A stretch of DNA of 64,000 nucleotides from Mobula hypostoma (GCF_963921235.1 NC_086108.1:4898001-4962000); one strand, 5' to 3'. Counted from the stretch's first letter, positions 3,361 through 45,899 are shown. Notes: a model not told the origin generated them from the sequence alone. Program-made: numbers and translations.

Positions 3361-4269
3361 AAGTGGAGGTTGATAGGTTTTTGATTAGACAGGGTGTCAA
3401 AGGTTATGGGGAGAAGGCAGACAAATGGTGATGAGAGGGATAATAAGTTAGCAATGATGCAATGGCGTTGCAGACACTACGGGCCGTGCCTAATTTAGCT
3501 CCTATATTTTCAAAGGTCAGAGTAAATTTATTATCAAGATACATATATGTCACCACATACAATCCCTAGATTCATTTTCTTGGGGGTTTGAATATTGTCA
3601 CTCCTTTCCGTGCCTTGTGGCACATTGGGCAGCATTTTTTCCATTTCTGTAGCATTTGACTGTTTTTTTTATAAGGCCAGGGTGCTAGCTTGATGCTCAA
3701 CCCAGCACAGATGGAAAGCGTGTAAGGTGCCGTTTGGATTCGAACCCAAGACCACTCGCCTCAAATCCTGGTGCTGATGCAAATAAATTCATATGGGTTG
3801 TATTATGGTCTTATACAAACTGTTGTCACCATCATTTGATGAAGATGACTGGGATTAAAACTTCCAATCATCTTCAAATAGCATCCTGTAGATGTTATCA
3901 TCTGCACAACAGGAAGAGGTTCATAAACAGTTAAAACAGGAAAATCAGGCAGGGACATGAAACACAAGCAACTCTGGGATAGGGAGGGGGACTGTGCAGA
4001 GAATTTGCAAATTGTTTTTCAAAAAGTCTGTTGGCAAAATTATCTCAAATGTGAAGGGAGGCAGAGTTTCCATAAGATGAAGGCTAATAAGCAAATTCAG
4101 AGCAGATAATATCAAACGCAAAGTGACACACCTTATAGTTTGGTAAAGCTCTTCCAAATGGCAAGGCAGGTCTAACAGAACCAAAGAAAACAACAGGACA
4201 CAAACCATTTTATAGCAAGGAAAAATTATATCATCCGGACGCAATGAGGCTGACTGACAGAAAGGAACC

Positions 4270-35755: not shown

Positions 35756-36344
35756 GTAGGCTGCACTCCAGATGTTAGACAAACCAAAGGCAGTTTCTGG
35801 TCTATGCAGAGAGTATCTTTTGCAAAAATGTCTTTCAATGTGAACTGAACACCAGATTAAAAGGAAGTGTTATTTGGTATTAGCTCATCAGTTAAACAGA
35901 GGACTTGGCTCCCAGAGTAGTGCTATCTCTTCCGTCATTCCAAAGAAGGCTAGCATCAAGCCACTGACCCATGTCCAAATGGTTCTGCATCAAATCCCAT
36001 TCAAACGAAGCTGATACAATTAGCTTAATCAGTTAAAGCTGTGCTGTATTCTTGAAATAGTTGCCTGTTATAAATTTGCTTCCTTTAATCTTGGATTAAA
36101 ATTTGCTGTAGCAAACAGAACGTGTTCATGAGTCAGCAGTTTCTGCTGCTTCACTTTCCAAATTCCTGTAATACAATCTTTCTCTTTTGGGTGCTTTTAC
36201 CCTTGAACTATCTCATCATCACCATGTTGTATGATTGTTCTTAGCCAATTTTCCTACCCGTATCTACCAGTGTCATAAAAACAGAAGATGTTGTATACAC
36301 TTAGCAGGGTTTGGCAACAACTGTGGAAAGAAAAATGTACTGTA

Positions 36345-36638
36345 AGGGCCGGCTGGTGGCGCAATGACATCAGCGCCGGACCCGGGAGCGGAGGTTCCCG
36401 GGTTCGAAACCAGTCGGGTCTGCTCCCGAGTACGCTTTCCATCCGTGCCGGGTTGAGTGTCGAGATCGCAACTCGACATCGTAGAATAAAGGGAGAAATA
36501 CTGCGAGGGTGTCTGTGTGAGGAGTGGCGTGTCACACAGTCTCTCTCTCACTCCGTGCCTTGTAAAAGCCATGAAAAAGACATCATCACAAACGTATGCG
36601 CATACCCACATGCAGAGACGCACACGCACAGGCCAAAA
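36345..36638 (+). mobile_element. Young tRNA-derived SINE inserted 9 bp into the 5' LTR
   Basis: A box tggcgcaatg (36357), B box ggttcgaaacc (36401), A-tail and a 14-bp TSD aaaaatgtactgta (36331-36344, 36639-36652). CpG-rich. Confidence 0.88.
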
Positions 36639-36643
36639 AAAAA

Positions 36644-36841
36644 TGTACTGTATGGCCTACAGTATAATAAGGGACTACTTTATGTTGTAGGGACACGTCG
36701 TTGCATGCACCATTAGGCACGTATTAATCTGTACATGTGTGCTGAGTTTGGGTTCTGCCAGTAAAGAAACATGAAACTTAGCTCCTGTCTCTGGCGTTTT
36801 TATTAATAGCATTGTTGTGTAACCAGGCCACATACACAACA
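36644..36841 (+). repeat. 5' LTR (198 bp, TG...CA)
   Basis: Direct repeat of 43985-44207, with about 10 substitutions by manual alignment plus one 25-bp indel. Confidence 0.95.
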
Positions 36842-36844
36842 ATT

Positions 36845-36857
36845 TGGCGATGAGGTT
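36845..36857 (+). promoter_or_regulatory. Primer binding site, probably tRNA-Ser(GCT)
   Basis: tggcgatgaggtt lies 3 bp after the LTR, versus TGGCGACGAGGAT expected from the tRNA-Ser(GCT) 3' end (recalled). Confidence 0.75.
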
Positions 36858-37211
36858 AATGAACCTACACCGTATTAGAACGCCGTGTTTTAATTGATAA
36901 CGACACTCGGAAGAAGAGCGCAAGGAACGAGCCAAGGAGCGGGAGAAGGAGGCAGAGAGAGTCCACGAGTCTGAAAGAAAGCGGGTGCACATGCGGGAGA
37001 CCAAGAGACACAGTCGGAGCCACGGCACGTCCAGCCGAGACCACAGCCGGCGCTGACTCCCAGGGGCTGAGGATCTGCCTGCCTCAGAAGGGAGATAAAA
37101 AGGAGCAACACACACACATCTAGATGGAGTATGCTCGTGGCGCTAGCAGAAAGGACACGCGAGTCAAAAAGGAAAATAAGGGGAGAACAGGGCTAAATTA
37201 ACATAACAAAG

Positions 37212-37933
37212 ATGGTGATGATTGGAACCATTACAGCATTTGATAGTGGCATTGAAGACTGGGCAACTTACATTGAAAGAGTGGAGTTATATTGTGAGGC
37301 TAACGGTGTTAAGGATGAAAAGATAGCCAGCGTCTTACTCAGTATTATGGGAGCAAAAACATACGGCCTGCTACGGAGCTTGTTAACCCCTGAAAAGCCA
37401 GCTGACAAAATGTTCAAGCAAATAGTAGGCACTCTCCAACAGCATTTAAACCCCAAACCACTGGTCATTGCTGAAAGATTTAAATTTTATAATCGGAATC
37501 AGAGCAAAAATGAAAGCATTTCTGAATATTGTGCTGAATTGCGCAAATTATCAGAACATTGTCAGTTTGGAGCTGGTTTAGCGGATGCATTGAGGGACAG
37601 GTTAGTGTGTGGCATGCACTGTGAAACCACACAGAAGAAGCTTCTGTGTGAAAGATACCTTACATTCGAGACCTTACATTGCTAAACATTGTAATATCAA
37701 CAGAAACAGTGGCATTGTGTGCTTCCGAGATACAACAAAAATCTCTGGAATATGCCACTAATAAAATGTCACTGAACAGGAATGAAGGAAAGAAATGTTA
37801 CCGTTGTGGGAACAGGTCACATGTTGGTTTAAAGACAAAGAATGCAGAAACTGTGGCAAACAGGGCCACACTGGCAGAGTATGCAAAGCTAATAAACAGC
37901 AGAAAAAGTACAAAATACAGAGAAACAAGAAAC
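37212..37933 (+). pseudogene. Gypsy gag, frameshifted
   Basis: EDWATYIERV...AERFKFYNRNQSKNESISEYCAELRKLSEHCQFG...LRDRLVCG, and a CCHC knuckle CRNCGKQGHTGRVC at 37843-37884. Confidence 0.9.
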
Positions 37934-38195
37934 GTGTGATGTCGGGCAGTGCAGCGCGGCAGATTTAAAAGGGCAGAAATCCTGCTTCGGGTTTGATTCG
38001 AAGAAGGAAGTCTGAGAGTCTGAGTGGGAGTGCCGAGAAAGACATTTTTGAAATTCTAGTTTTTTTTTCTCCAACGGCATTCAGAGAGGCGGGACTGCGC
38101 AGGCGTGTGACGTCGGGCAGTGCAGCGCGGCAGATTTAAAAGGGCGAGGAAGGTTTGGCATTCATTTTCTGTTGCTATTTGAGGAGAGGGGCATT

Positions 38196-39131
38196 ATGAC
38201 TGTGAGGGCAGTTTGCTGTTCTCGGTGTCGGATGTGGGAGGCCCTGGACGCTCCAAGCCTCCCGGACGTCTACATCTGCGCCAAGTGCATCGAGATGCAG
38301 CTCCTAAGGGACTGCGTTACGGAACTGGAGCTGCAGCTCGATGACCTTCGTCTGGTCAGGGAGAGTGAGGAGGTGATAGAGAGGAGTGGAAGGCAGGTGG
38401 TCACACCGCGGCCACGGGAGGCAGACAAGTGGGTCACGGTTCGGAGGGGGAAGGGGAAGAGTCAGGTAATAGGGAGTACCCCGGTGGCTGTGCCCCTTAA
38501 CAACAGGTACTCCTGTTTGAGTACTGTTGGGGGGGACAGCTTACCCGGGGGAAGCAACAGTGGCCATGCCTCCGGCACAGAGTCTGCCCCTGCAGCTCAG
38601 AAGGGTAGGGCAAGGAAGAGGAGGGCAGTTGTGATAGGGGACTCGATAGTAAGGGGGTCAGATAGGCGATTCTGTGGACGCAGTCCAGAGACCCGGATGG
38701 TAGTTTGCCTCCCTGGTGCCAGGGTCCGGGATATTTCTGATCATGTCCAAGATATCCTGAAGTGGGAGGGTGAGGAGCCAGAGGTCGTGGTACGTATAGG
38801 TACCAATGACATAGGTAGGAAAAGGGAAGAGGTCCTGAAAGGAGAATATAGGGAGCTAGGTAGGGAGTTGAGAAAAAGGACCGCAAAGGTAGTAATCTCG
38901 GGATTACTGCCTGTGCCACGTGACAGTGAGAGTAGGAATGCGATGAGGTGGAAGATAAATGCGTGGCTGAGGGATTGGAGCAGGAGGCAGGGATTCAAGT
39001 TTTTGGATCATTGGGACCTCTTTTGGCGCAGGCGTGACCTGTACGAAAAGGACGGGTTACACTTGAATCATAGGGGGACCAATATCCTGGCAGGAAGATT
39101 AGCGGGGGCTACTGAGGTGACTTTAAACTAG
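38196..39131 (+). CDS. CR1 ORF1p (zinc finger/leucine zipper plus SGNH esterase-like domain), open frame
   Basis: CxxC...CxxC, coiled coil, and VIGDSIVRG, GTND and DGLHLN blocks. Confidence 0.88.
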   Translation: MTVRAVCCSRCRMWEALDAPSLPDVYICAKCIEMQLLRDCVTELELQLDDLRLVRESEEVIERSGRQVVTPRPREADKWVTVRRGKGKSQVIGSTPVAVPLNNRYSCLSTVGGDSLPGGSNSGHASGTESAPAAQKGRARKRRAVVIGDSIVRGSDRRFCGRSPETRMVVCLPGARVRDISDHVQDILKWEGEEPEVVVRIGTNDIGRKREEVLKGEYRELGRELRKRTAKVVISGLLPVPRDSESRNAMRWKINAWLRDWSRRQGFKFLDHWDLFWRRRDLYEKDGLHLNHRGTNILAGRLAGATEVTLN

Positions 39132-39368
39132 AATGGTTGGGGGGTGGGAATCAAATTAAAGAGGCTAGGCGAGAGGAGGTTAGTTCACAACAGGGGGATG
39201 GGAACCAGTGCAGAGAGACAGAGGGGTGTAAAGTGAGGGTAGAAGCAAAAAGTACTAAGGAGAAAAGTAAAAGTGGCAGGCCGACAAATCCAGGGCAAGC
39301 ATTAAAAAGGGCCACTTTTCAACATAATTGTATAAGGGCTAAGAGTTGTAAAAGAGCGCCTGAAGGCT

Positions 39369-42150
39369 TTGTGTGTCAATGCAAGGAGCATTCGTAATAA
39401 GGTGGATGAATTGAAAGTGCAGATTGTTATTAATGATTATGATATAGTTGGGATCACAGAGACATGGCTCCAGGGTGACCAAGGATGGGAGCTCGACGTT
39501 CAGGGATATTCAATATTCAGGAGGGATAGACATGAAGGCAGGGGAGGTGGGGTGGCGTTGCTGGTTAAAGAAGAGATTAACGCAATAGAAAGGAAGGACA
39601 TAAGCCGGGAAGATGTGGAATCGATATGGGTAGAGCTGCATAACACTAAGGGGCAGAAGACGCTGGTGGGAGTTGTGTACAGGCCACCTAACAGTAGTAG
39701 TGAGGTCGGAGATGGTATTAAACAGGAAATTAGAAATGTGTGCAATAAAGGAACAGCAGTTATAATGGGTGACTTCAATCTACATGTAGACTGGGTGAAC
39801 CAAATTGGTAAAGGTGCTGAGGAAGAGGATTTCTTGGAATGTATGCGGGATGGTTTTTTGAACCAACATGTCGAGGAACCAACTAGAGAGCAGGCTATTC
39901 TGGACTGGGTTTTGAGCAATGAGGAAGGGTTAATTAGCAATCTTGTCGTGAGAGGCCCCTTGGGTAAGAGTGACCATAATATGGTGGAATTCTTCATTAA
40001 GATGGAGAGTGACATAGTTAATTCAGAAACAAAGGTTCTGAACTTAAAGAGGGGTAACTTTGAAGGTATGAGACGTGAATTAGCTAAGATAGACTGGCAA
40101 ATGACACTTAAAGGATTGACGGTGGATATGCAATGGCAAGCATTTAAAGGTTGCATGGATGAACTACAACAATTGTTCATCCCAGTTTGGCAAAAGAATA
40201 AATCAAGGAAGGTAGTGTACCCGTGGCTGACAAAAGAAATTAGGGATAGTATCAATTCCAAAGAAGAAGCATACAAATTAGCCAGAAAAAGTGGCTCACC
40301 TGAGGACTGGGAGAAATTCAGAGTTCAGCAGAGGAGGACAAAGGGCTTAAGTAGGAAGGGGAAAAAAGATTATGAGAGAAAACTGGCAGGGAACATAAAA
40401 GCTGACTGTAAAAGCTTTTATAGATATGTAAAAAGGAAAAGACTGGTAAAGACGAATGTAGGTCCCCTACAGACAGAAACAGGTGAATTGATTATGGGGA
40501 GCAAGGACATGGCAGACCAATTGAATAATTACTTTGGTTCTGTCTTCACTAAGGAAGACATAAATAATCTTCCAGAAATAGTAGGGGACAGAGGGTCCAG
40601 TGAGATGGAGGAACTGAGCAAAATACATGTTAGTAGGGAAGTGGTGTTAGGTAAATTGAAGGGATTGAAGGCAGATAAATCCCCAGGGCCAGATGGTCTG
40701 CATCCTAGAGTACTTAAGGAAGTAGCCCAAGAAATAGTGGATGCATTAGTGATAATTTTTCAAAACTCGTTAGATTCTGGACTAGTTCCTGAGGATTGGA
40801 GGGTGGTTAATGTAACCCCACTTTTTAAAAAAGGAGGGAGAGAGAAACCGGGGAATTATAGACCGGTTAGCCTAACGTCGGTGGTGGGGAAACTGCTGGA
40901 GTCAGTTATCAAAGATGTGATAACAGCACATTTGGAAAGCGGTGAAATCATCGGACAAAGTCAGCATGGATTTGTGAAAGGAAAATCATGTCTGACGAAT
41001 CTCAGAATTTTTTGAGGATGTAATTAGTAGAGTGGATAGGGGAGAACCAGTGGATGTGGTATATTTGGATTTTCAAAAGGCTTTTGACAAGGTCCCACAC
41101 AGGAGATTAGTGTGCAAACTTAAAGCACACGGTATTGGGGGTAAGGTATTGATGTGGATGGAGAATTGGTTAGCAGACAGGAAGCAAAGAGTGGGAATAA
41201 ACGGGACCTTTTCAGAATGGCAGGCGGTGACTAGTGGGGTATCGCAAAGCTCAGTGCTGGGGCCCCAGTTGTTTACAATATATATTAATGACTTGGATGA
41301 GGGAATTAAATGCAGCATCTCCAAGTTTGCAGATGACACGAAGCTGGGTGGCAGTGTTAGCTGTGAGGAGGATGCTAAGAGGATGCAGGGTGACTTGGAT
41401 AGGTTGGGTGAGTGGGCAAATTCATGGCAGATGCAATTTAATGTGGATAAATGTCTAGTTATCCACTTTGGTGGCAAAACTAGGAAAACAGATTATTATC
41501 TGAATGTTGGCCGATTAGGAAAAGGGGAGGTGCAACGAGACCTGGGTGTCATTATACACCAGTCATTGAAAGTGGGCATGCAGGTACAGCAGGCGGTGAA
41601 AAAGGCGAATGGTATGCTGGCATTTATAGCGAGAGGATTCGAGTACAGGCTGCAGTTGTACAAGGCCTTGGTGAGACCACACCTGGAGTATTGTTTGCAG
41701 TTTTGGTCCCCTAATCTGAGGAAAGACATCCTTGCCATAGAGGGAGTACAAAGAAGGTTCACCAGATTGATTCCTGGGATGGCAGGACTTTCATATGAAG
41801 AAAGACTGGATGAACTGGGCTTGTACTCGTTGGAATTTAGAAGATTGAGGGGGTATCTGATTGAAACGTATAAAATCCTAAAGGGATTGGACAGGCTAGA
41901 TGCAAGAAGATTGTTCCCGATGTTGGGGAAGTCCAGAACGAGGGGTCACAGTTTGAGGATAAAGGGGAAGCCTTTTAGGACCGAGATTAGGAAAAACTTC
42001 TTCACACAGAGAGTGGTGAATCTGTGGAATTCTCTGCCACAGGAAACAGTTGAGGCCAGTTCATTGGCTATATTTAAGAGGGAGTTAGGTATGGCCCTTG
42101 TGGCTACGGGGATCAGGGGGTATGGAGGGAAGGCTGGGGCGGGGTTCTGA
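39369..42150 (+). pseudogene. CR1 ORF2p (APE endonuclease plus reverse transcriptase) with one frameshift near 41005
   Basis: NARS, GITETW, GDFN, SDH, NYRPVSLTS, DFQKAFD and FADD motifs. The frame breaks at CLTNL/EFFED and PQGS reads SQSS. Confidence 0.93.
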
Positions 42151-42275
42151 GTTGGATGATCAGCCATGATCATAATAAATGGCGGTGCAGGCTCAAAGGG
42201 CTGAATGGCCTACTCCTGCACCTATTTTCTATGTTTCTATGTTTCTAAACCCCAGAAAGGAAAATACAACAATGT

Positions 42276-42700
42276 ATGGAAGAAAGCAGTTCTGATGAAA
42301 ATGACTCAGACGAAAGTGAATTGTTTTGTCTGCAACTTCACAGCATGAAAGAGACAGATGATCGAAGAGTAATAAGGATCACTCCACAAGTGGCAGGCGT
42401 GAGACTGAAAATGGCGTTGGACACAGGCTCAGCTTTAACAGTGATCTCTGTAGACGACTACAAATGACTGTTTTCTCACATAACTCTGAAATGAACTAAA
42501 CTACTGCTAAAGACTTACACAGGACAGAAAGTGCATCCCAAAGGCAAAATTAAAGTGACAGTGACCTAAGGAGACAAAATACAGCAGCTGAACCTCTCTG
42601 TACTGAAAAATGGAGGACGACTGTTGCTGGGGCGGGAATGGCTCAGGAAAATCCAGTTGGATTGGCACACCATCAAGACACTAGATGTGTCAACACAGGA
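42276..42700 (+). pseudogene. Gypsy aspartic protease with in-frame stops
   Basis: LDTGSALTVIS...LKTYTG...LLGREWL in one frame, with stops at 42465, 42492 and 42567. Confidence 0.9.
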
Positions 42701-42719
42701 GGGCAGTTCAGCGGGGAAG

Positions 42720-43626
42720 ATGTCCGCGGCTCTCTTCTCATTCATTGTCGATTATTACAAAGATGAGGAGGAGCTAGACAACATCAACGATGAGGATGAA
42801 TGCAGTATCCGTGGCCGCGACTCGGATGAAGATACAGAAGATGCAAGGGAGACAGATATTGCCAATAAGCAGGATGATGAAGACTACCTGGAAGTAAAAG
42901 AGCAGATGTACCAGGAGAAATTGGCATCTCTCAAAAGACAGCTACAGCAGTTACAGGAAGGCACTTTGTAGGAGTATCAGAAAAGGATGAAGAAACTAGC
43001 TCAACAATACAAGGAAAGAATTCGAAATGCAGAGCTTTTTCTGCAGCTGGAGACGGAACAAGTGGGAAGGAATTATATTAAAGAGAAGAAAGCAGCAGTG
43101 AAGGAATTTGAGGATAAAAAGATTGAGTTAGAAAAAAGAAAAAGATGATTGAGAATGAGAGGTTAACAATGGAACTCACAGGAGATTCTATGGAGGTAAA
43201 GCCAATAATGACCCTGTTCCAATTACAGACAAAAGACGAAAACCTGCACCTGCGCAGTTAAATTACTTGTTAACAGATGAACAGATAATGGAAGATCTGC
43301 GAACTCTCAATAAGCTTAAGTATCCGAAAAGACCAGCATCTCCGTCTGCTCCTGAGCATCTTCCCAGTCCTCCTGCAGAATCACCAGCACAAAGATATGA
43401 AGCACGAATAGAAGATGGAAAGATATATAACGATAAGAGATGGTATCATAAAGGTCAGACTATCTATTTGGATTCTAAGGAGAATACGAAGATTGGCTGT
43501 GTAATTAGCTCATTTAAAACAAATGAGATATGGGTAAGGAAGACAAGCGATAGCACAAAGATGGGAATAAAACTAGGACAGCTGCACAGAGGAGTCTTCA
43601 TTATACGGAGGCGATCTGCTGCCTAG
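42720..43626 (+). pseudogene. SUDS3: Processed (intronless) copy of Sin3 HDAC corepressor complex component SDS3
   Basis: MSAA...[12 protein letters not shown]...[33 protein letters not shown]...[16 protein letters not shown]...[13 protein letters not shown]...[30 protein letters not shown]...[13 protein letters not shown]...IRRRSAA* matches vertebrate SUDS3 as I recall it, from start to stop. It has a TAG at 42969 and two frameshifting deletions (~43130, ~43210). Confidence 0.95.
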
Positions 43627-43716
43627 AATTCTTAGCAAGTTGGAGGCGCACACCTTCTTAACTCCCTATGCTCAAAGGTCAACTTTTCATGACTTCTATA
43701 TGGAAATCTGTATTAA

Positions 43717-43722
43717 AATAAA
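43717..43722 (+). promoter_or_regulatory. Poly(A) signal of the captured SUDS3 3' UTR
   Basis: AATAAA ~90 nt after the stop codon and ~15 nt before retroelement sequence resumes. Confidence 0.6.
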
Positions 43723-43971
43723 CAAGTTTATTGACAGTCATTACCCGGAGAGGCAGAGAAGAACCCCCCCAGAGACTTGAGTTATAAATGGGTCTTAGAC
43801 CAAAAGTTAAAAAAAGGCTTGTTATAATTTGATATTATTATGTTACTTTGTTATGATTTGATATTATTAAGTTACTAAGTAAACAAATGGTAGGTGTTTG
43901 TATATTAAGGATAGACATATTTGTTCAGCATAGTGACCCAGTAAAAAAAACAGTTGATACACTATTAAGAT

Positions 43972-43983
43972 AAAAGGGGAGGA
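43972..43983 (+). promoter_or_regulatory. Polypurine tract
   Basis: aaaaggggagga immediately before the 3' LTR. Confidence 0.88.
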
Positions 43984-43984
43984 C

Positions 43985-44207
43985 AGTACTATATGGCCTA
44001 CAGTATAATAAGAGACTACTTTATGTTGTAGGGACACGTCGTTGCATGCACTATTAGGCACATATTAAGCTTGCGCTATTAGGCGCGTATTAATCTGTAC
44101 GTGTGTGCCGAGTTCGGATTCTGCCAGTAAAGAACCATGAAACTTAGCTCCTGTCTCCGGCGTTTTTATTAATAGCATTGTTGTGTAACCAGGCCACATA
44201 CACAACA
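43985..44207 (+). repeat. 3' LTR (223 bp)
   Basis: Direct repeat of 36644-36841. The first base is A rather than T, and there is an extra 25-bp tandem unit. Confidence 0.95.
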
Positions 44208-45899
44208 AAAAACAACATTTACCTTTTAATTCTGAGACTCTTCATCAGATCTGGGAAAGAAAGAGACCAAGGGGGTATTGAGGAGTGGATTTATAGCAGA
44301 TGTCCCCAGCCACCAGGGTCCTTGTCCATGGCATAAAAATAGGTTGGGAACCTCTGATCTATTGGATAGATGGAATACCTCTGATAGGGTGAGACCAAAT
44401 AGTTAATATAATAGATAGATGTTGCTCAAGAGCAGTTTCTTTCCTACAACCATTATATTGTGGAGTCTGCTTGTACAACGATAAAGCTACTTCAGTAATG
44501 GACTCTACAGACCACCTCTTCCACTTGTCTTCAATCATGTCTTACTTCCTCAGCTTTTCTACCTCCCAACTGCGAGCTGTGTGGGGTGTTCAGGGAGGGG
44601 TAGCACCTCTGGTGAAAGGATCTTGTGTGTTCATTCCTGGGCAGCTCGCTCACCTTTGGTCCTCACCTGTTTGTATATGACAGCAGCCACACCCCGGTAC
44701 ACCACTGTGACAGGCGGCTAAACCAGGTGAGGGTAGCCGGTGGCTTCATCCCCTGTGAGATAGGGGCATATCTGTCCCAGCACGCAAAGCCAGCTCCGGC
44801 GGACTGGGCAGATGAGACCTACAGTGAGATCTAACAGCCAGAAGGCCGTTCTGCAACGCTCCATGGGCGGCGAAGGGCATGACAAGGCACAGAAGACAAT
44901 ATGGTCGTCCACAGCAACCTAGAAAGATCCCAGTTTGTGACGCATGTTCACACCACTGGACTTGGACTTCTGAGGTCAAAAGAGTGGAACTGCTCCACTG
45001 CAAAGGATTTTCCCTTTTAAATACTCTCCCACACAGGTCTCCTGTCATCGCTGGACACAAAGGACAGCTACCACCACCACCCCCAAATGTATATGTTTAC
45101 AAATAATTGATATTCTGTAGGCACTGTACCGAGCTGCCTGTGATGCTGCTGAAAATTTAGCACAACACTTTACGCTACCAGCGACCCAGGTTCAATTCCC
45201 GCCATTATCTGTAAGGAGTTTGTACATTTTTCCCTTGACCGTGTGGGTTTCCTCCAGGTTTTCCGGTTTCCTCCCACAGTCCAAAGATGGTAGGTTAATT
45301 GGTCTTTGTAAACAGGATAGGGTTAAATCGGGGATAGCTGGGCAGCTCAGCTCAAAGGACCGAAAGGGCTCATCCCATAAGTAAAAAATAAAAATAATTT
45401 AAAATCCCTCCGAAGTTTGTACTTTATTCCAGATTGCAGTCTCTGTCTAAGTCCTTTTCTGCTTCAGGCCACCACTTTGCAGCTGTGTTTAATATTTTCA
45501 GATCACTCATTTTTCCTCACTGCACTCACACGTTATCCTCATGAAGGTGAAAAGGCATTCAGCATGCAGGCACATGCCGGCCTAGAGGAGTGGAGGGAAT
45601 GGAAAATCGATCCTCTCCCCCATTCAAAGTACAAAGTAAATTTTATTATCAAAGTATGTACATGTCACCACAAAAAAAAACCCTGGGATTCATTTTTCTG
45701 TGGGCATACTCAGCAAGTCTATGGAAATGTAACTATAACAAGATCAATGAACGATCAACCAGAGTGCAGAAAACAACAAACTGTGCAAATACAAATATAA
45801 ATAAATAGTAATAAATTATGAGAACATGAGATAAAGAGTTCTTAAAGAGTCCAAATCATTGGTTGTGGGAACATTTCAAATGATGGGGCAACTGAGTGC

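Follow-up and report, generated by a model that had tools for sequence, protein, structure and literature searches.

The subject of this report is a Gypsy-type retrotransposon that carries a copy of the host gene SUDS3. It lies at positions 36336-44208 of a 64,000-nucleotide stretch of Mobula hypostoma DNA (GCF_963921235.1 NC_086108.1:4898001-4962000), hereafter the window, and is a Ty3/Gypsy-derived long terminal repeat (LTR) element with the 5-bp target-site duplication (TSD) AAAAA at both ends. The element is, with high probability, a decayed copy of a non-autonomous Gypsy family, the founder of which captured a SUDS3 mRNA by template switching and spread in trans; further switches followed, and the captured gene travelled as a passenger.

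A sequence-only reading of this DNA had proposed the order LTR, primer binding site (PBS), gag, protease, short leader, SUDS3, 3' untranslated region (3'UTR), integrase stub, polypurine tract (PPT) and LTR, and every part was found where it had been placed. The LTRs are ~200-225 nucleotides (nt) long, stand in direct orientation and run from TGTAC to ACAACA, i.e. they have TG...CA ends (other copies of the family begin the 5' LTR with TGTACCGTATAGCC). The alignment of the two window LTRs has 189 matches, 9 mismatching positions and a single indel of 25 nt. The PBS-like string of the window, at 36845, is TGGCGATGAGG; the consensus of 22 copies and of the autonomous partner described below is TGGCGA(C/T)GAGG, 2-3 nt beyond the LTR. 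The gag-protease part matched 450 polyproteins at E<=1e-5, with a best identity of 66%, and is 60-66% identical to fish single-open-reading-frame (ORF) Gypsy polyproteins of ~1310 amino acids (aa). The protease spans 42249 to ~42700 in the window, and the Pfam protease matches are under the gathering scores (E 2e-4). As had been claimed, no reverse transcriptase (RT), RNase H or integrase core lies between the protease and the pol stub of the window, and none was found in the family.

The identity of the cargo is clear. A more intact family copy matched mouse SDS3 chains with E 1.8e-30 (4zqa) and E ~9e-8 (2n2h), the Pfam Sds3 domain is above cut-off in the more intact copies, and the translation of the element SUDS3 is 88-91% identical to a ray SDS3. 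The window's own SUDS3 pieces gave a single weak Pfam Sds3 match (E 0.009). With the SDS3 match of the more intact copy, and with both junctions recurring genome-wide, the SUDS3 layout and its joins are far beyond chance. The earlier reading had described a complete, intronless SUDS3 coding sequence: it is intronless, but it is not intact, since the frame in the window is broken by an in-frame TAG (42969-42971) and by two frameshifts (-1 nt after 43133 and -28 nt after 43205), and a further 24 nt, lost in frame, are missing from the whole family. Similarly, the letters AATAAA reported from the 3'UTR are present at ~43717, yet they do not serve as a poly(A) signal: other copies and the parental gene have AAAAC(A/G)AACAAG there (the parental 3'UTR reads AAAACGAACAAG where the window reads AAAATAAACAAG), and the parental 3'UTR runs on past this place. 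The window AATAAA is a private substitution.

The same joins occur at many places in the genome. The 301-nt protease/SUDS3 junction query yielded 617 first-look candidates and the 426-nt 3' junction query 725; in each search all 40 scored matches were full-length, at 89-100% identity for the former. Together with two later searches, 150 listed places resolved into at least 131 distinct loci on 29 contigs, and 40 loci, 5.5 kb each, were fetched for comparison. Among the 27 copies in which both LTRs were located, the 5-bp flanks, compared by eye, were identical in 15, had one mismatch in five and two mismatches in one, and were not assessable in six. These target duplications vary from copy to copy; as the flanks differ between copies, each copy is its own integrase-type insertion. 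Identical junctions with different flanks, which had been set beforehand as the test of an amplified family, are thus what the genome holds.

The family is an old burst. The two LTRs of a copy mismatch at 5.4-11.4% (median 9.1%, 24 copies), and the whole frame from gag to SUDS3 was found in none of the 40 fetched copies, the longest ORF (497 aa, in copy L047) having weak gag, protease and Sds3 domains in one frame. Every copy that spans the site joins window position 37933 straight to 42247, so the long interspersed nuclear element (LINE) lying between these positions is private to the window copy. The family unit measures ~3.2-3.5 kb and is non-autonomous; LTRs, PBS, PPT, gag and protease are all retained in the chimera, in line with the proposal that the cis signals had been kept.

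The existence of an autonomous Gypsy partner sharing the LTR had been assumed, and such a partner was found; it delimits both breakpoints. Searching the genome with one of the ~1310-aa polyproteins gave many pol-bearing copies, one of which, G000:C50:36859329-36863264, covers residues 2-1311 of a 1311-aa Gypsy polyprotein with 7 stops. This one copy was compared at the DNA level, in small stretches, while its pol is known via the protein match. The identity of its DNA to the window is 86.6% over 36644-37933 and 89.9% over 42247-42706, which is comparable to the identity among family copies; beyond that the partner continues into RT, where the family has SUDS3. The string GGAGGGCAG is common to partner and family up to 42706, the homology ends exactly there, and it restarts at 43735 and runs through the PPT and the LTR. 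Because the end of the partner pol (...RRYPERQRRPPQRLEL*) matches the window from 43735, the stub consists of the last ~14 codons of pol, i.e. it is the integrase C-terminus that had been recognized in the sequence. Since the partner copy has RT, RNase H and integrase and the family lacks them, the family ranks as a derivative, not as an autonomous member.

The source of the cargo, a multi-exon SUDS3 gene, could also be found and aligned. When contigs of public runs were aligned to a copy of the long variant (see below), some proved to be high-depth and mRNA-like (their source runs may be DNA), with 24 extra letters encoding KENLIAEL, and extended 328 nt past the 5' junction and 1044 nt past the long-type 3' junction. 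Three small runs are only guessed to be RNA, and the contigs that bridge the junctions may be DNA. Two short strings from the mRNA-like contigs have one exact genome match each, 20 kb apart on contig C78, which carries the parental gene. Its last exon follows the acceptor ...tttcttacag, and the homology of the element to this exon begins at the first base of the exon in 32 copies (median identity 94.4%), ending at parent position 751 in 10 long copies and at ~526 in 20 short ones. An internal exon with AG and GT borders holds 24 nt between two TGAGTT repeats. These 24 nt are missing in 35 of 35 tested copies, and the 24-mer is unique in the 3.48 Gb genome at up to 2 mismatches. All copies descend from one founder, since none of those tested has the 24 nt that occur once in the genome, in the parental exon. 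In the founder the captured sequence begins 13-19 nt ahead of the ATG, reaches ~340 nt beyond the stop and is set between the protease end and the last ~14 pol codons; the cDNA stops inside the SUDS3 3'UTR, and the mRNA was thus copied in part. At the 5' junction a microhomology, GGGCAG, of up to 6 nt was seen. Parental exon 1 was not located, as element copies swamp the searches for it.

From the replaced pol, the shared junctions, the individual TSDs and the pol-bearing partner we infer template switching and mobilisation in trans. Within a virus-like particle, the RT copying a Gypsy RNA would have jumped to a spliced SUDS3 mRNA packaged with it and later returned to the Gypsy template; the enzymes of the autonomous partner would then have copied the chimera and inserted it in trans. 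A further template switch between the TGAGTT repeats may have produced the 24-nt in-frame deletion, which was already in the founder. The capture of a SUDS3 mRNA during reverse transcription had been put forward in the earlier reading, and the recurring junctions, the partner breakpoints and the parental gene support this interpretation.

Two points had not been foreseen: the window form is itself a secondary recombinant, and the lineage also captured RNF213 and YBX1. The long type has 225 nt of extra SUDS3 3'UTR and is joined to pol at ...GGACAATC followed by CAGAGAAGA. We considered whether these 225 nt might be a degenerate pol stub and rejected this, as the parental 3'UTR matches through their end. 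In the short type, to which the window copy belongs, the 3'UTR ends at GACAG(AC), and next comes GTTACCCGGAGAGG, a partner pol sequence absent from the long type; the bases shared at this 3' junction are CAGAC, 5 nt. The simplest reading is that the short type arose by a later switch between long-type RNA and partner RNA, which would have rejoined it to the partner pol sequence at CAGAC. The window type is thus a secondary recombinant of a fuller capture with 225 nt more 3'UTR.

Another type carries an insert of ~950 nt at 43334/43343, with the 10-nt repeat CAGCATCTCC on both sides. The inserts of six copies are 87-94% alike, and their antisense reading is the RING region of RNF213 (E 2.3e-39); a search with the RNF213 fragment gave 156 candidates. 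A short RNF213 derivative consists of SUDS3 to 43364, 58 nt, antisense RNF213 1-515 and the 3'UTR from ~43658. Lineages with an antisense RNF213 fragment, and several shorter derivatives, may all be products of template switches. A separate class of copies holds antisense RNF213 positions 1-640 only, e.g. G000:C2:184212554-184213195.

In the YBX1 type (~28 full copies among 39 candidates, all 39 scored) SUDS3 continues up to ...VERNYI(K/R)EKK and is there succeeded by a Y-box protein cDNA (YB-1, E 1.1e-45; Pfam CSD), which matches seven exons of a gene at C75:3285070-3305314. On its 3' side stand a short RNF213 piece and then the SUDS3 3'UTR. The SUDS3/YBX1 join lies at 11 nt, AGAGAAGAAAG, common to the SUDS3 exon and the YBX1 5'UTR, and the YBX1/RNF213 join at ~10 nt, GGACAAAATC, common to YBX1 exon 7 and the RNF213 piece. 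The SUDS3 frame passes through the 81-nt YBX1 5'UTR to the YBX1 ATG with no stop. Here, a template switch at these 11-nt and 10-nt microhomologies would have replaced the rest of SUDS3 with spliced YBX1 cDNA. Microhomology is present at most of the later joins.

Most likely, the cargo is a passenger, and the repeated keeping of one gag-protease-SUDS3(-YBX1) frame may reflect a need for translated, stable genomic RNA rather than SUDS3 activity. One may also suppose that the cargo was selected because it is useful to the element, in that it titrates or redirects the silencing Sin3/HDAC corepressor, supplies an RNA chaperone, or provides a long frame that shields the genomic RNA from decay. The frame was kept in three successive rearrangements (the protease/SUDS3 junction, the 24-nt deletion and the SUDS3/YBX1 junction), the chance of which is roughly 0.01, but this is a post-hoc figure and a post-hoc argument. 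Selection was tested on 33 of the 40 copies; L031, L033, L048 and L060 (poorly aligned), L025, L051 and L054 (YBX type), both window pieces and the partner were set aside. In gag-protease the ratio of nonsynonymous to synonymous changes was lower in variants shared by at least 3 copies (62:39) than in singletons (342:115; Fisher p 0.009). The corresponding SUDS3 ratios, 30:17 versus 182:61, point the same way, yet this contrast is not significant (p 0.15). Pairwise dN/dS was 0.59 for SUDS3 and 0.53 for gag-protease; however, recurrent CpG changes occur among the shared variants, and NG86 dN/dS is biased low. Moreover, sublineages in which SUDS3 is broken by antisense RNF213 still amplified (the 156 candidates above), and neither protein nor RNA evidence was seen. 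A functional SUDS3 copy did not emerge from the material: the window copy is interrupted by a stop and two frameshifts, the complete frame is missing from all 40 fetched copies, and the SUDS3 test lacks significance. Selection for a working cargo is therefore unlikely, and so is the view that fusions of host proteins with Gag-protease, a nearly whole Sin3/HDAC subunit first and then a Y-box RNA chaperone, were kept in the lineage by selection. If this were true, the cargo would be an anti-silencing or packaging factor, or a translated spacer, and the element a germline analogue of an oncogene-transducing retrovirus with cargo serving the parasite.

The origin of the chimera could also be sought in a processed SUDS3 pseudogene, made by a LINE inside a Gypsy copy that later lost pol, the composite having spread by segmental duplication. 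Active CR1-like LINEs do exist in this genome, and the window element itself contains one. However, no poly(A) and no flanking TSD of the ~7-20 bp expected for such a cDNA were found around the SUDS3 segment, either in the window or in the family copies compared, and no pol runs across it; all of this agrees with the earlier reading. The 3' end of the mRNA, of which the contigs and the gene show at least 1 kb more, is also missing from the cDNA. With poly(A), a separate TSD and the mRNA 3' end all missing, a LINE-made pseudogene can be excluded for practical purposes. The exact replacement of pol, from the protease end to the last 14 codons, also argues against it. In addition, the copies, spread over 29 contigs, have separate 5-bp TSDs at their LTR ends, a pattern unlike that of segmental duplications; altogether this origin is very improbable. 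An assembly artefact, in which a Gypsy element and a SUDS3 retrocopy were falsely joined, can be dismissed, because the same joins occur at the at least 131 listed loci and contigs from four public runs with four organism codes bridge the protease/SUDS3 junction.

Several points weigh against a template-switched, trans-mobilised family. The 131 loci are a lower bound, and 617 and 725 are numbers of first-look candidates and no census. The copy tree (MAFFT alignment, long branches being copies that carry insertions) is star-like, and on the 5' half the structural variants are not clades; the order of the variants rests on junction logic because the tree gives it no support. At the long-type 3' join the microhomology is 0 nt, with only a CCGGA similarity nearby, and the GGGCAG overlap at the 5' junction rests on contig alignment ends and not on parental exon 1. 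Finally, the fetched partner copy has 7 stops and 0 of 40 family frames are intact, trans-mobilisation being deduced from structure.

Two observations concern single copies. L028 and L029 (G000:C68, 1.7 Mb apart) are near-identical sisters in the otherwise star-like tree and may represent a segmental duplication and not two transpositions. In copy L047 (oriented 3790-4222) the SUDS3 3'UTR and the pol stub are separated, precisely at their junction, by a purine-rich insert of ~430 nt that includes a (GA)n run.

LTR-mediated retroposition is a known mechanism, and what makes this family unusual is its copy number, the gag-protease fusion that it has retained and the way in which the successive captures from three host genes can be traced. 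Acutely transforming retroviruses are replication-defective, helper-dependent viruses in which pol/env is replaced by spliced host cDNA, often as a Gag fusion. The SUDS3 element shares this defective design, but it is a germline retrotransposon without env for which no evidence of a cellular effect was found, and its capture, as far as the junctions tell, did not require read-through from an upstream integration. The LARD and TRIM elements, as well as ETn with MusD, are more numerous than the autonomous partner whose LTR, PBS and PPT they share. Their internal sequence is non-coding or unknown, whereas the SUDS3 element carries an identifiable spliced host mRNA fused to gag-protease. Maize Bs1 is reportedly a plant element of low copy number, and it differs from the SUDS3 element in its cargo genes and element family. 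It is likewise a non-autonomous LTR element with pieces of several cellular genes, according to PMC5131818.

The closest parallel is with the LTR-mediated retrocopies of metazoans, in which cDNA stands in place of ORF parts between discontinuous halves of an LTR element (Tan et al. 2016, PMC5131818). In these cases the mRNA is partly copied, poly(A) and own TSD are absent, the junction microsimilarity has a median of 6 bp, multi-gene chimeras occur, and the product can act as a non-autonomous element (PMC5131818). The SUDS3 element resembles them in its partial cDNA, the lack of poly(A) and TSD, and chimerism, and it shows microsimilarity at some of its joins. However, the retrocopies described in that paper occupy a single site or about two, against the at least 131 listed loci here, and the SUDS3 element, unlike them, has retained gag and protease, with which its cargo is in frame, and shows later captures that can be ordered from shared junctions. 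HERV-K, a vertebrate LTR element, has likewise captured a cDNA, that of FAM8A1, and its fusion points show microsimilarity, but this is a single, untranscribed locus (PMC5131818), whereas the SUDS3 element forms an amplified family.

Our literature search found no description of a SUDS3-carrying element. A 2026 preprint (10.64898/2026.06.26.734816) counts SUDS3 as one of the five leading retrocopy parents in cartilaginous fishes and ascribes such rankings to formation bias together with selective retention; the terms 'Gypsy', 'LTR-mediated' and 'template switch' are absent from its main text. The element family would explain the apparently prolific 'pseudogene' output of SUDS3 in cartilaginous fishes: the many SUDS3 copies of the present genome are one capture multiplied as transposon cargo, and counting them as independent retrocopies misleads. 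The other top parents listed there, MIPOL1, SDF2L1, SLU7 and ZNF276, might be transposon cargo too, which is a conjecture.

Public gene models are affected as well. The 'SDS3-like' models of two devil-ray species (P0126-P0130, P0132 and P0195) lack the same 8 residues, KENLIAEL, which the genuine SDS3 of devil ray and sawfish retain, and models P0195 and P0130 begin with protease-junction residues. The models are element copies and not host paralogues. In addition, the family offers a natural record of template switching by reverse transcriptase, with donor, acceptor and product for seven joins, and this record includes the exon-shuffling of three host genes in a vertebrate.

The features of the window element are collected in the following table.

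Table. Parts of the SUDS3-carrying Gypsy element and later insertions in it (window coordinates)
Feature	Position	Strand	Remarks
Left TSD copy, AAAAA	36331..36335	.	Adjoins the TGTAC... start
First ~10 nt of 5' LTR (TGTACTGTA)	36336..36345	+	Split off by the SINE-like insert; TGTACTGTA recurs at 36643
Insertion like a short interspersed nuclear element (SINE), with poly(A) end; later arrival, outside the family unit	36346..36642	+	Not present in other copies
Remainder of 5' LTR	36643..36842	+	Direct repeat with the 3' LTR, 93-94% identity
PBS-like TGGCGATGAGGTTAATGA	36845..36862	+	2-3 nt past the LTR; kept in 22 listed copies and the autonomous copy
gag: capsid part and two CCHC knuckles (near 37796-37869), frame broken	37212..37933	+	LINE insertion after 37933; 60-66% identical to Gypsy polyproteins
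CR1-like LINE (GDSL esterase ORF1, endonuclease, RT), later insertion, window copy only	37934..42246	+	Pfam; AAAC at both borders
gag end and aspartic protease, LDTGS at 42417-42431	42247..42706	+	Last 9 nt GGAGGGCAG close the homology to the autonomous element
SUDS3 5'UTR leader, 13 nt	42707..42719	+	Same reading frame as protease
Intronless SUDS3 coding sequence, broken	42720..43626	+	ATG 42720; stop 43624-43626
SUDS3 3'UTR part of the short (window) variant, 111 nt	43627..43737	+	End GACAG overlaps GGCAGAC of pol
pol stub, last ~14 codons (integrase C-terminus, ...YPERQRRPPQRLEL*), frameshifted in the window	43738..43786	+	Alignment with autonomous copy L062
Gypsy 3' untranslated region including PPT AAAAGGGGAGGA (43972-43983)	43787..43983	+	Tract abuts the 3' LTR
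3' LTR, with 25-nt tandem duplication missing from the 5' LTR	43984..44208	+	Direct repeat
Right TSD copy, AAAAA	44209..44213	.	After ...ACAACA

Two later insertions have lengthened the window copy. The CR1-like LINE, which is younger than its host element, is nearly full-length, with a GDSL-esterase ORF1 of 359 aa; its endonuclease and RT are encoded by two further ORFs (559 and 384 aa) with an overlap at ~41000. A duplicated AAAC borders the LINE, a 171-nt tandem repeat is found at its 5' side (37933-37974 / 38104-38145), and its tail is (ATGTTTCT)n. The head of the SINE-like insert (GGGCCGGCTGGTGGCGCAATG...) looks tRNA-like, and neither ARAGORN nor Rfam gave a match to this insert.

The 25-nt tandem duplication is present in one LTR only in the window copy (44040-44090) and in L026, L027, L034, L037, L039, L040 and L053, with gaps of 25-31. 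As both LTRs should be identical at insertion, this uneven distribution points to recurrent slippage or loss at the repeat.

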